From the NCBI GenBank assembly GCA_963664225.1, contig OY760937.1, positions 928,001-992,000 of the forward strand: a stretch of DNA of 64,000 nt. Reading direction: 5' to 3'. Made by a program: the position numbers and the translations under genes. This DNA comes from Verrucomicrobiia bacterium (GTDB lineage: Bacteria; Verrucomicrobiota; Verrucomicrobiia; Limisphaerales; UBA1319). Within the stretch, counting starts at the first letter, position 1. Each line of letters opens with the position of its first letter. Positions 38,555 through 42,519 of this stretch are shown piece after piece. The notes beneath the pieces are model-generated. The model saw only the letters and a list, made by a program, of their open reading frames with translations, was not told the origin of the DNA and searched no databases.

Positions 38555-40253
38555 AGGCGAGGCGAAGGATTCCGGGCAAGGCGTTTGCTTCTGATTGGCG
38601 AGAGTGGCTTGTGACCCATGGCATTGATGGTCCGTCTTCCGCCATCAGGAAAGTTCCGATGCGGGACCCCTACTTCGACTTGATGATGCGCCTGGGACGG
38701 GACTTATTTGTTGGCGCAGCCACGGGGATATAGAGTTCGAATGCAGATCCGGCGCCCCATTGGCTGGACACCTCAATCCAACCTTTATGCTGCCTGACGA
38801 TGTCGCAGACCGTTGGCAATCCAAGACCGACCCCTTTGCCGGGATCCTTGGTGGTGAAGAATGGCTCGAAGATGCGCGGCAAGTGCGCTGGCGCGATACC
38901 CGTTCCGGTATCGATGAAACTCAGGCGCACGAATTCGCCGGCCCGGGCTTCGGGATGGGCCTGCGCGTCGGATTTATCAAAACGGACTTTTTCTGTTTTA
39001 ATGTGCAATTTTCCTCCGGATTGCATGGCGTCGCGTGCGTTGATAACAAGGTTGAGGAGGACCTGTTCAAGCAAGCCGACGTCCGCGAGGACGCGGGGCA
39101 GTGCCGGTGCTGGCTCAAATTGCAGATCGATTTTTTCCCCGAGTATGCGTTGCATTGTCTTTCCCAAGCGCTCAATTTGCGGGTTTAAATCCAGCACTGT
39201 GGCGTGGAAGTTCCTCTTGCGGCCAAAGTCGAGCAATTGGCGCACCATTTTAGAGGCGTTTTCAGTGGCGAGGACCATCTCGGCAACGCACTCGACGGCT
39301 TCGGGGCCAAGTTTATCGCGCTCCAATTGGAGAAGGCTGGCATTCGCACGAATGACGGCAATGAGATTGTTGAAATCGTGGGCCAGTCCAGCGGCAAGCT
39401 GACCGATCGCTTCCATTTTCTGCGATCGGCGCAATTGCTCCTCCAGGCGTTTACGTTCCGTAATATCCCGCACGATGGTTGAAATGCCAATGACCCTGCC
39501 ATCGGAATTTTTTACGGGGGACGCGGTCAGCCAGACATCTATATGCCTCCCATCCTTTGTGACGCGGACCGTCTCAAAAGGTTCCATCGATTCCCCGCGG
39601 GCCACGGCGTTGTGTATGCGCTGAAGTTCCTGGCGGCGGTCGGTTGGAATGACCCGGGCGATTGACTGACCCACAATTTCGGCCGCGGAGTATCCATAGA
39701 TGCGTTCTGCGGCGGTGTTGAAGCTCACCACGATATCATCGAGCGTTTTGCCAATGATCCCGTCATTGGCGGAATCGACAATTGCCGCGAGGCGATCGCG
39801 CTGTTCTTCAAATTGTTTTTGCCGGGTGATGTCACGAACATTGCAGATGATTCCAACGGTCCTGCCCGTGGAGTTGCGCAGCGGCGCGTTCCATTGCGAC
39901 ACCCAGCCGGCGCGCCCCTTCTCAGGAATTCGATATTCAAATGCCAGGCTGGTCGTTTCATTGGTTTTGAGCGTATTAAGCAGTTGTTTTCGGATGGCCA
40001 GATTCCGAAACAATGGGAAGACCTCCACCAAATTGCGTGATAAAACCTCGGAGGCGGCATAGCCTGTGATTTTTTCCATTTCAGGATTCCAAAACCTGAA
40101 ATTGAGCTTTCGATCATAAACGATGATCCCTTCCTGGATGCTGGAAACGATCTGGGCGTTCAGCTGACTGGATTCGCGCAAGGCCTCCTGTGCCTGGGGG
40201 TGAGTTGTTCTCTGTGTTGTAAAATGGTTTTTCATAAAAGTTATTCACCAAAA

Positions 40254-41504
40254 TTACCTGGCGGTTTTGGTCTGCAGACTCAGCACCCACGAACCATGCA
40301 GCTGCTGGTTTTTGGCATGTATTTCCGGATCGTAGGGCGCGTGGGTTTGGAGCATTTTCCAGATGATTTTGAGCCACCGCTGGCCCAGACACCGCAAAGC
40401 GCAAGCGTGGCTTTTGCCCTCTTCCCGTTTTTTCTGGTAGTAAACCTGTGCCCAAAGACATTTCTTGCGACTGCAATCGCTCCACAGATGCACGGCATGG
40501 CGGAGGAACTTGTCGCAGTGGTGGCGGATGCGGACCTTGTCGATTTGTCCCGATTGATAACTCACAGGAGCCGTGCCCGCAATGCCCTGCAGATGCTGTG
40601 CGCTTTCAAACCGGCCCGACCCGCCGCCGATTTCTCCCAGCAGCCGTGGAGCCAAAAACGAGCCCGCTCCGGGCAGCGAACCGAACAAGTCATGGTCGGG
40701 GTGCTGTGCAAACAAGGCCTGGATTTGCGCGTGATAAACATCCAGTTGCTGCTGCAACGTGCGTAACATTTTGGCCAGGCTCACCGCCAGGGTGCCCTTG
40801 GCCGCCGTCAGGGCCGCCGAGCCGCAAAACTGATCGGCCCGTGCAAAAATGCCCATCCGTTTTTCAGCGGTTTCCGGCCGCCAGAGCTTATGAACGTGCA
40901 GGAACTTTTCCCACCGTCGCTTGCCGGCTTTGACCAGCGCACGAGGCGTTGGAAACTCAATGATGAAATCCCACGCCGAGGCCATGGTCCAATCCTCAAA
41001 GGCCTCCAGGGCCGCCGGATAGTATTCCAAGAGAGCTTGTTGCAATTGATTTACGAACAGCGTGCGCTGACCGATGAGATGAACCTCATCCCGGCAGAGC
41101 ATCTGCAACTGGCTGGTCAGCGCGTCCGTTGGGACCAGCGCTTTCCAACCGTGCCCGTCGATCCGCAAGGCATCGGCCAGAGACCAGGCATCCAGAAAAT
41201 CGGTCTTGCTGCCGCTGGGCACCTTGCGATCCCGATACCGCTGGGCGCTCTTGGGATTGACCGGATAGACCGTTGCCTCCCCCCTCAGGAGCTGGTCCAC
41301 AGCCGTGCCGAAGCTCGTCTCAATGGCCACCGCCAAAGGGGCGAAGGGCGCCGTCTTTTTCCGCCATTGCTCCCAGCCCTCCTGGGAATGCTCGAAGCGG
41401 AACTGTTCCACGATCTTGCCCTCTCGATCGACGATGACCACATCGTGATGATCCCGGGCCCAATCCAATCCGGCAAAACAGGATATCTCCAACCATGATT
41501 TCAT
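40254..41504 (-). CDS. IS110 family DEDD transposase/recombinase (416 aa)
   Basis: RBS GGAGGA; GLDWA, AIET, KTDFLDA (DEDD RuvC-like), SLPGAG, APVSYQSG (catalytic Ser domain). Confidence 0.95.
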   Translation of the reverse strand: MKSWLEISCFAGLDWARDHHDVVIVDREGKIVEQFRFEHSQEGWEQWRKKTAPFAPLAVAIETSFGTAVDQLLRGEATVYPVNPKSAQRYRDRKVPSGSKTDFLDAWSLADALRIDGHGWKALVPTDALTSQLQMLCRDEVHLIGQRTLFVNQLQQALLEYYPAALEAFEDWTMASAWDFIIEFPTPRALVKAGKRRWEKFLHVHKLWRPETAEKRMGIFARADQFCGSAALTAAKGTLAVSLAKMLRTLQQQLDVYHAQIQALFAQHPDHDLFGSLPGAGSFLAPRLLGEIGGGSGRFESAQHLQGIAGTAPVSYQSGQIDKVRIRHHCDKFLRHAVHLWSDCSRKKCLWAQVYYQKKREEGKSHACALRCLGQRWLKIIWKMLQTHAPYDPEIHAKNQQLHGSWVLSLQTKTAR

Positions 41505-41520
41505 AGATCCTCCGTTACGG

Positions 41521-41678
41521 GGCATCGGAGCGCTGTCGTCAGTCAACCTGATACAGGAAGCCTCGCGGGCAATAGTTCTCTCAGACTTTTTGACAGGCGC
41601 CGTCGGACGGGCCGGTAAACTCTCCTCAGTCTTCTTAAGACAAGGGGTGTATGACCGTGATCCATCCGGGGCGATGCC
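41521..41678 (-). ncRNA. IS110 bridge RNA (core region, ends approximate)
   Basis: Closing stem GGCATCG/CGATGCC; target loop CACCCCT + hairpin GTCTT-AAG-AAGAC + TGAGG; donor loop AGAGAAC + hairpin GCC..GGC + GTATCAG, matching the actual target and donor junctions. Confidence 0.8.
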
Positions 41679-41687
41679 GCCAGAAGC

Positions 41688-41716
41688 ATTATACTCCGGC
41701 GACAAAAGTTTTTCAC
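41688..41716 (-). promoter_or_regulatory. Candidate internal sigma70 promoter for the bridge RNA/transposase
   Basis: GTGAAA-N17-TATAAT; the perfect -10 (41693-41688) lies just upstream of the bridge RNA closing stem. Confidence 0.5.
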
Positions 41717-42519
41717 CGCTCGATTTTTTGGCGGCGGCACAGTTATTCACCGTTAGCTGCGGGGAGCTTCCCGGGGCTCTCCTCGCCAACGGATGATTAC
41801 CTGTGGAAACCGTATCAGGGGTGATGTCCTCGAATATCCGCAAAATCAAATTTGCCGAATTTTGGTCCGGCATCCAATGTGTAATCTGAAAGACTTTGTT
41901 GTTACAGAGATCGACCGTTTCCAAGATTCCAGAAAACTTCCGCCCCGTCTGTTTTTTAAATGGGCAATTGGGGCATTTAAGTTTGTCGTCCTTATATGTT
42001 TTCCAGCAGGGGCTGCCGGTTTTTGTATTCGGGAAGAGTTTTTCCAGCGCTTTGTTTCTGAAGACGACACGACCCTTCAAATCGATCAGATCGATGCCAA
42101 TCGGAAAAGCATTGAGCAAGTCGCCATTGAACATCAGGTCTGAAAATTGAGACGACTCCTTTCCTATGTGATCCTGAGCGCCATTGGATTTGCGCGGGTT
42201 TCGTGATTTTGGGTCTCGCTTCATTCCTCTCAAGAAAACAGGCCGTTCTGGCTGGTTTGAGGCAAAAATGCCCACACATGAGACAGCGATCAAGGAGAAT
42301 GTTTTCCGATTCAGTGGGAATTGCGGTTGGTGCAATTTGGGTTCGGATGCATGGAATTCGCGTGAATGATTCTGGTGGCGCGTCATTTGGATTGCCACTA
42401 AAGTGGTCCTGCGATGCGGTCGGTCCGGCGTAAATCGGGCGAAATATGGTTCGACCGATGGTGGAGTAAACTGAGAAGGCATGGAAGACCGCCTTTTTTA
42501 TTATAGCGATAGAGATGAT

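Follow-up and report, generated by a model that had tools for sequence, protein, structure and literature searches.

Does the long non-coding end of an insertion sequence (IS) in a Verrucomicrobiia genome encode a bridge RNA, and do the guides of this RNA match the element's own target and donor? The question was raised by an IS110-group element on contig OY760937.1 of assembly GCA_963664225.1, within a stretch of 64,000 nucleotides (positions 928,001 to 992,000) that is called the window below; all positions are those of the window, and sequences are read on the minus strand. An initial annotation, made from the letters alone, had proposed an IS110 element with a bridge RNA, two binding loops, and a CT core, and this assignment was borne out in our analysis by protein family, predicted fold, RNA covariation, and guide tests. 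Very likely, 41816-41505 is the non-coding end on the left side of an IS110-group element that is active, and it encodes a bridge RNA. Coordinates are collected in Table 1.

The element interrupts a sensor PAS histidine-kinase gene in frame. Its removal restores ...EDITP/HPQAQEAL... (codons read directly; a slash marks the junction), and the part of the kinase downstream of the element carries PAS, HisKA, and HATPase_c domains. The left junction reads ...GAGGACATCACCC-CT/GATACGGTTTCC... (41830-41805), with ...ATCACCC-CT/GATACGG... around the core; the right junction reads ...CACAGAGAACAA-CT/CACCCCCAGGCAC... (40220-40190), with ...AGAGAACAA-CT/CACCCCC... around the core. Read directly, GATACGG... 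and ...AGAGAACAA at the two ends do not form inverted repeats, no repeat finder having been run for short subterminal inverted repeats.

Public contigs from four runs, all used as contigs, were compared with the window over 39700-42300. A 13,687-nt contig of run X2 joins 40202 to 41817 and skips exactly 1,614 bases (40203-41816), with two ambiguous letters (the CT); one contig of run X1 has the same empty-site joint, while other X1 contigs stop at the element borders. Thus, DNA with the empty site exists, the boundaries of the element are exact, the insertion is polymorphic or specific to a strain, and the restored target read by the initial annotation is real. The insertion is recent or strain-specific and differs between or within the sequenced cultures; contigs cannot tell whether the empty form precedes insertion or follows excision. 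Contig depth over the element was 67.1 versus about 20 in the flanks in X1 and 29.5 versus 10.4 in X2, values that were not used as copy numbers or cell shares. The genome itself contains four full copies with 99–100% identity, the same exact ends, and CT on both sides, flanked by CGCACCC-CT...CT-CGCCT, ATCACCC-CT...CT-CACCC (window copy), TGAACCC-CT...CT-CTCTT, and GGAACCC-CT...CT-CTCCT. The CT core was also present in most relatives.

A structured RNA in the left end was evident from comparison with these relatives. Eighty loci, mostly from metagenome-assembled genomes of Verrucomicrobiota and Planctomycetota, were fetched via an alignment of 24 homologues of the recombinase, and the 165 nt upstream of the relatives' genes aligned as conserved anchors and variable blocks. 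With 39 sequences, RNAalifold predicted two arms that both contain an internal loop and end in an apical hairpin. In the MAFFT alignment 87% of cells were paired versus 30–46% with the partners slid, and the covariation score was 0.504 versus 0.09–0.13, with none of 500 shuffles as high. In the model-based alignment of 74 distinct rows 89.2% were paired, seven helices reached 90–99.7%, and both-side changes occurred in 32 of the 37 pairs; the helices of the donor-binding arm were 92–99% paired, with compensatory changes present. The covariance model R1, built from 39 sequences, detected the RNA at 79 of the 80 loci (78 full-length, one, L027, cut by a contig end), in each case immediately upstream of the recombinase gene; a degraded locus, L078, gave no match. 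All four guides are located on the sides of the two internal loops of this covariation-supported structure. The stem GGCATCG/CGATGCC, described initially as enclosing all four guides, occurs in this copy, with compensatory changes in subclades, but is only 58–60% paired family-wide; the enclosing stem is subclade-specific.

Guides were then compared with the flanks of each element. Left-end termini of the relatives were located by fuzzy match to the conserved terminal sequence and right-end termini by the conserved donor motif followed by CT; a loose regular expression for left-end termini, whose candidates were mostly false, was abandoned. The comparison excluded loci in which no terminus had been called, repeated guide-flank pairs, and the window's own four copies. 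The left target guide (LTG) matched the left target at 4.00 of 7 positions in cognate pairs versus 1.79 in non-cognate pairs (n = 51), and the right target guide (RTG) matched the right target at 4.19 of 5 versus 1.53 (n = 54); none of 10,000 permutations was as high in either test. Guide-target covariation among homologous IS ends, by which the earlier proposal was to be judged, was thus observed. Position by position, right-target bases 1–5 were complementary to columns 80–76 of alignment A3 in 79–87% of cognate versus 25–33% of non-cognate pairs, with nothing past base 5, and the diagonal for the left target was strongest beside the core.

All strings of the initial annotation were found at the minus-strand coordinates that it gave: CACCCCT (41649-41643), TGAGG (41628-41624), AGAGAACTATT (41581-41571), and GTATCAG (41554-41548), as well as the stem strings GGCATCG (41678-41672) and CGATGCC (41527-41521). 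Three of its four guide segments stand, namely CACCCCT in the LTG, AGAGAAC in the left donor guide (LDG), and GUAUCAG as the right donor guide (RDG), while the fourth, TGAGG, was mis-registered by 5 nt; the true RTG is AGGAGAG (41626-41620). In 200,000 mononucleotide shuffles of the 312-nt end, CACCCCT, AGAGAAC, and GTATCAG occurred singly in 1.5–2.4% and all three together at a rate of 1e-5, whereas TGAGG alone occurred in 28% of the left-end shuffles; the match of TGAGG therefore carries no weight.

It is very unlikely that the bridge RNA is real and nevertheless uses TGAGG (41628-41624) as its RTG, pairing C-CT-CA, so that all four guides would be perfect here. As a reverse complement, the string matches CCTCA of the restored target exactly, and with AGGAGAG the window site matches only three of the five right-target positions. 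Across 54 relatives, however, the TGAGG/CCTCA register, 5 nt further 5', gave no cognate signal (2.09 versus 2.15 of 7), in contrast to the register ending at AG, which gave 6.19 versus 3.53 matches of 7 (0 of 2,000 permutations as high); the cognate signal was lost in all windows shifted 1–5 nt 5'. All 39 aligned sequences have the AG that lies here at 41621-41620. The right target of the sister copy L004, CTCCT, matches the prediction of the homologous register at 5 of 5 positions, or 6 of 7 when extended. The other right targets in the genome match CTCCT at three of five (CACCC, window) or four of five positions (CGCCT and CTCTT).

With AGGAGAG as the RTG, the guides predict TACACCC-CT-CTCCT, and the four own sites share its center, (C/A)ACCC-CT-CnC(C/T). 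The initial annotation had expected other copies in CACCC-CT-CA; a common insertion-site sequence was found, but it is not CACCC-CT-CA throughout. A search of the own genome for TACACCC-CT-CTCCT gave no perfect match, one with at most one mismatch, and nine with at most two, while shuffled-guide controls averaged 28.6; the predicted 14-nt target is therefore not an abundant repeat.

On the donor side, the right-donor positions were 100% complementary in cognate pairs, and the variants of the left-end terminus in relatives (AATAT, GGTAT, GTTAC, and GATAT) were mirrored in their RDG. Variants of the left donor (AUAGAAC, AGAGCAC, AGAGGGC, and AGAGAAU) were likewise mirrored in the LDG of the same relatives. 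The handshake nucleotides of the target-binding loop (TBL) matched the last two donor bases (positions 6–7) at 1.65 of 2 versus 1.02 in non-cognate pairs (n = 31), and, within the donor-binding loop (DBL), the first handshake nucleotide matched the last base of the target (position 7) at 0.88 versus 0.32 (n = 50); again, 0 of 10,000 permutations were as high in either case. In relatives the TBL handshake nucleotides covary with the last two donor bases ahead of the core, bases whose match to the LDG is less consistent. This accounts for the imperfect tail of AGAGAACTATT, which the annotation had compared with the left donor: in the window UU faces the donor AA. Handshake guides were described for IS621, and complementarity of these guides to the non-cognate DNA favors strand exchange according to the structural work on that element (PMC11208158).

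Several observations weigh against the bridge-RNA assignment. Of the 12 non-core positions of the window insertion, only 8 match its guides (left target 5/7, right target 3/5), and the distal left-target positions 1–3 are mismatched at each of the four own sites. In the LDG, the 3' part (UAU) fails to match the donor AAC, the second DBL handshake nucleotide gave no family signal (0.20 versus 0.20, n = 50), and the donor-end tests are partly circular, as the ends were located by conserved terminal motifs. Folded as a single sequence, the 180-nt core had a z-score of only −0.71, and the minimum free energy structure mispaired the donor arm, while the whole left end alone reached a z-score of −3.33; since single-sequence folding was unconvincing, the structure is based on the comparison of relatives. 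We failed to find an Rfam family for the RNA: a permissive scan of 39800-42300 gave three chance-level matches, none of them in the left end. The sole contig from an RNA library, X19 (533 nt, 41275-41804), comes from a relative with about 90% identity, and contigs cannot show transcription, ends, or strand. No circle-junction joint was present among the contig joints listed, which is uninformative either way.

The recombinase was assigned to the IS110 family by domain and family models. Pfam domains DEDD_Tnp_IS110 (PF01548, E 4e-30, residues 11-163) and Transposase_20 (PF02371, E 6.5e-14, residues 273-356) were identified, and NCBIfam NF033542, "IS110 family RNA-guided transposase", scored 176.7 bits against a cut-off of 140. 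Residues D14, E62, D102, D105, and S318 (S318-G319) are invariant in the alignment of 24 homologues; by our reading of the alignments, the first four would form the DEDD tetrad, and the Ser motif SYQSG aligned with RYESG of ISCro4. A sequence search of solved structures retrieved only IS621 (phmmer E 2.4e-6) and ISCro4 (2e-6), mainly through the C-terminal domain. The AlphaFold model from the 24-sequence alignment had a predicted local distance difference test score (pLDDT) of 81.6 and a predicted template modeling score (pTM) of 0.71, with low confidence in the loop 313-328. Its ten best fold matches in the PDB were all chains of IS621 or ISCro4 synaptic complexes, including 8wt6, 8wt9, and 9t56 (E 2e-13 to 9e-13, target TM-score 0.71–0.75, 17–19% identity); TIGR-Tas and Nop5-type proteins came next, and RuvC chains were also among the matches. 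The protein had been called divergent. Judged by sequence comparison, it is about 18% identical to IS621 yet a member of a very large clade: 4,240 of the 8,000 scored proteins had E ≤ 1e-20, many of them at 65–70% identity.

That the element is a fossil, with guide matches that are historical and a window copy that is now immobile, is highly improbable. Decay of relatives is evident from two left-end-only remnants with 86–88% identity, but the window copy is identical to L001 and differs from L003 by one base and from L004 by nine, the 416-amino-acid frames are open in all four full copies, the catalytic residues are intact, the kinase site is empty in the 13.7-kb X2 contig, and both forms occur in X1. 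The earlier description of the element as intact agrees with these data, and the element has recently and apparently been active. That it is also programmable, as was proposed, we infer from natural covariation.

It is scarcely credible that the left-end structure is only a feature of the 5' untranslated region (UTR) or of the DNA, such as a translational control or end-like protein-binding repeats without RNA guidance: the region does immediately precede the recombinase start (17 nt separate the 3' side of the closing stem from the ATG), small RNAs and UTR structure regulate the ISPpu9 transposase according to a reference title in PMC11208160, and no transcript evidence was obtained for the left end here, but compensatory base-pair changes in seven helices are not expected from protein-binding repeats, which can explain neither the covariation of loop nucleotides with left and right flanks outside the element nor the strand sense, which differs between the 5' and 3' sides of the loops exactly as in IS621.

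A bridge RNA encoded by the left end could act as follows. [quoted passage not shown] The LTG UACACCCCU on the 5' side of the TBL, which equals the left target with the CT core in sequence, would pair with the bottom strand. The DBL would act on the joined circle ends, its LDG (C)UGAGAGAAC pairing with the right-end terminus and its RDG GUAUC-AG with CT-GATAC of the left-end terminus. The handshake nucleotides, which follow each AG on its 3' side (UU of the target loop to the donor AA, and G of the donor loop to the last C of the target), would be placed to capture the exchanged top strands. Strand exchange at the CT core would be carried out by a tetramer of the 416-amino-acid DEDD/Ser recombinase assembled on both loops, and the element would be inserted without target duplication beyond the shared CT. 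RNA production, protein binding, and the order of chemical steps are assumed here by analogy with IS621.

Table 1. Features of the IS110-group element and its putative bridge RNA in the window
Feature	Position	Strand	Remarks
Whole insertion sequence	40203..41816	minus	IS110 group; 1,614 bp with one CT core (40204-40203); second CT at 41818-41817
Left end	41816-41505	minus	312 nt, non-coding
Extended -10-like TGaTACGGT	41809..41817	minus	Core T and left-end terminus; half of putative circle-junction promoter
5' stem-loop domain of left end	41731..41804 (left-end positions 13-86)	minus	Conserved helix AGGUAAUCA/UGAAUAACU around covarying inner stem
Internal sigma-70-like promoter (putative), GTGAAA-17 nt-TATAAT	41688..41716	minus	Just 5' of bridge-RNA core/TBL arm; 10/12 matches
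Bridge-RNA core (closing stem, TBL arm, DBL arm)	41519..41683	minus	Covariance model R1, 152.7 bits, E 2.2e-33
Target-binding arm	41599..41672	minus	Basal stems, internal loop, hairpin GUCUU-AAG-AAGAC (41641-41629); helices 90-99.7% paired in 74 distinct sequences
LTG UACACCCCU, includes CACCCCT	41643..41651	minus	5' side of TBL; column homology in alignment A3
RTG AGGAGAG	41620..41626	minus	AGGAG and invariant AG pairing core CT; predicts CT-CTCCT
TBL handshake guide UU	41618..41619	minus	Complementary to donor AA (40206-40205), last two bases ahead of core
Donor-binding arm	41532..41597	minus	Stems CCUGUC/GACAG(C) and AGUC/GACU, internal loop, hairpin GCC-CGCGA-GGC (41570-41560)
LDG CUGAGAGAAC	41575..41584	minus	AGAGAAC identical to left donor at 40213-40207
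RDG GUAUCAG	41548..41554	minus	Reverse complement of CT-GATAC (41818-41812)
DBL handshake guide G(U)	41546..41547	minus	G41547 complementary to C41819, last left-target base
Recombinase gene	40254..41504	minus	416 codons 41504-40257; stop codon 40256-40254
Right end	40205..40253	minus	49 nt; holds left donor AGAGAACAA (40213-40205) and -35-like TTTACA (40223-40218)
Left target with core	41817..41825	minus	ATCACCC 41825-41819 and core CT 41818-41817; LTG match 7/9 positions
Right target CACCC	40198..40202	minus	First 5 nt past core; match to RTG-predicted CTCCT 3/5

The closest described system is IS621 of E. coli with its bridge RNA of 177 nt (Durrant et al. 2024, PMC11208160; Hiraizumi et al. 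2024, PMC11208158). According to the rules set out in the pertinent sections of PMC11208160, LTG and LDG pair with the bottom strand and RTG and RDG with the top strand, the core being included in each pairing. Our element follows the IS621 design in every tested respect, on a branch far from the characterized enzymes. As in IS621, the left end is longer than the right end, CT cores are found at both junctions, the 5' stem-loop precedes the target-binding and then the donor-binding loop, handshake nucleotides lie 3' of each core complement, and a DEDD RuvC-like domain is combined with a Ser-bearing Tnp domain. Candidate -35-like and -10-like boxes, recognized by resemblance to consensus, would be split over the right-end/left-end junction, and the predicted fold matches 8wt6 and 8wt9 (E about 2e-13, target TM-score 0.71–0.74).

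Differences from IS621 were also found. The proteins share about 17–19% identity in structural alignment, and ours has 416 amino acids against chains of 328. The RTG comprises five right-target bases and the core, whereas that of IS621 was analyzed as four bases in the account given by PMC11208160; in the DBL, covariation is confined to the first handshake nucleotide; in the window's subclade, the two arms have their 5' and 3' sides joined by a closing stem; and the larger 5' domain (133 nt) has an extra putative sigma-70-like promoter before the TBL arm. Unlike IS621, this element is known from sequence comparison and prediction. ISCro4 (PDB 9t56) resembles it in fold and domain order (E 4e-13, target TM-score 0.73–0.75), and the Ser motif and DEDD blocks align, but it is distant in sequence (E 2e-6), and the comparison is limited to protein sequence and fold. 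With the IS1111 group and its seekRNA, the element shares the DEDD recombinase superfamily and an element-encoded RNA with target and donor guides, according to PMC11208160 and a review abstract. That group has long right ends, short left ends, and subterminal inverted repeats of 7–17 bp (PMC11208160), whereas our element has a left end of 312 nt and a right end of 49 nt, with its RNA upstream of the gene.

The initial annotation had also proposed a longer left end. Its 5' domain is indeed larger than that of IS621, but at 133 nt it is normal for the clade (100–212 nt in relatives). RNAalifold with 25 left ends gave 11 pairs in this domain, six of them with compensatory change, and the conserved long 5' hairpin is formed by AGUUAUUCA-like paired with UGAAUAACU-like sequence. 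The internal GTGAAA-17-TATAAT was the only promoter-like site in 40150-41900, where shuffles give 0.6. A -10-like box is located at the same place in the nearest relatives, and the segment is absent from relatives with the shortest left ends. In 56 relatives, the right end has a TTTACA-type -35-like hexamer 14–19 nt ahead of the core, averaging 3.7 of 6 matches to TTGACA; the tip of the left end has TG in 55 of 60 relatives, most with TACnnT. Both are resemblances to consensus only. IS621 has a promoter across the junction of right and left ends, as stated in PMC11208160, and a junction promoter of this kind is plausible in our element. For both promoters, the internal and the junction one, function is something that we only infer.

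Variation of the RNA was observed in several relatives. Contigs with about 90% identity to the window were found in a metagenome (X6) and a metatranscriptome (X19), and their listed differences cluster in the target-binding loop. For the X19 contig, 13 of the 39 listed differences fall in 41617-41652 (target loop and hairpin) and none listed in 41509-41616 (donor arm), a further 11 of the 50 differences not being displayed. At L033:1259-1447 a 24-nt insertion is present in the LDG side of the donor loop, and the model score is still 131 bits. A second, upstream TBL-like arm without a donor arm was found at L063:1155-1225 (also in L065 and L066), L083:1189-1309, and L055:86-198, with scores of 39.7, 22.8, and 15.3 bits; the ends of this subclade are longer, about 400 nt on the left and 210–250 nt on the right. 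The guide-like segments of the second arm of L063 resemble the main target loop of L059, not that of L063 itself. The second arm could represent a dual-target bridge RNA or a remnant of loop exchange.

A more speculative reading, which we hold to be unlikely though worth stating, is that the clade constitutes a structurally distinct class of bridge RNA, in which the closing stem clamps the arms into a three-way junction, the RTG has 5+2 nt, the donor-loop handshake is a single nucleotide, and a strong internal promoter of its own is present in the window's subclade. If this were true, integrated copies could use the internal promoter to make a bridge RNA that lacks the 5' stem-loop, independently of circle formation, unlike IS621, whose integrated copies express the bridge RNA only weakly according to PMC13626964, and the second upstream arm of the sister elements could give two target specificities.

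Bridge recombinases are under development as programmable DNA-insertion tools, and to our knowledge characterization has been limited to IS621 and a few orthologues that are close or moderately related to it. The present element, with about 18% identity to IS621, keeps the whole guide logic, handshake included, which supports the generality of the IS621 mechanism; knowledge of how bridge systems work is unchanged by these findings. The locus offers natural data, namely four near-identical copies at four sites, one empty-site allele, and about 50 relatives with guides matching their own flanks. It also provides an apparently active orthologue with defined target guides of 9 nt and 7 nt for editor screens. 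For the host genome, the consequence is local, a PAS histidine-kinase gene being split by the window copy. No paper was returned when full texts were searched for "bridge RNA" together with "Verrucomicrobia", ISfinder and the supplements of PMC11208160 being unchecked, so the clade may already be listed there.

Further traces of the element were found in the genome. The two left-end-only remnants, L005:1501-1647 (C1:5568853-5569005; 88% identity) and L006:1501-1556 (C1:3260801-3260856; 86% identity), start exactly at the left-end terminus, after target-like ...CCC-CT or ...TCC-CT, and the L005 remnant breaks off shortly past the start of the bridge-RNA core. Copies L003 and L004 are located inside a short repeat, ...GGAGGAyCTT...AACCC-CT-CTCyT...CTCTCCCCGyTCGTGCC..., of which a third, unoccupied member (TGAACCC-CT-CTCCT) lies on the + strand of the own genome near 797213.

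Two open frames link the element to its host gene. The first, of 742 amino acids (42482-40254, minus strand), runs from the N-terminal 222 codons of the kinase through the stop-free left end (104 codons) into the recombinase; it could fuse host kinase to recombinase in translation, although it is probably a coincidence of frame. The second begins with an ATG in the right end (ATGAAAAACC...) and extends for 521 amino acids into the PAS-HisKA-HATPase part of the kinase (40235-38670, minus strand). Many relatives keep the sequence ATGAAAAA in their right ends; with its place just upstream of the -35-like box, it may instead be an A-rich UP-like element.

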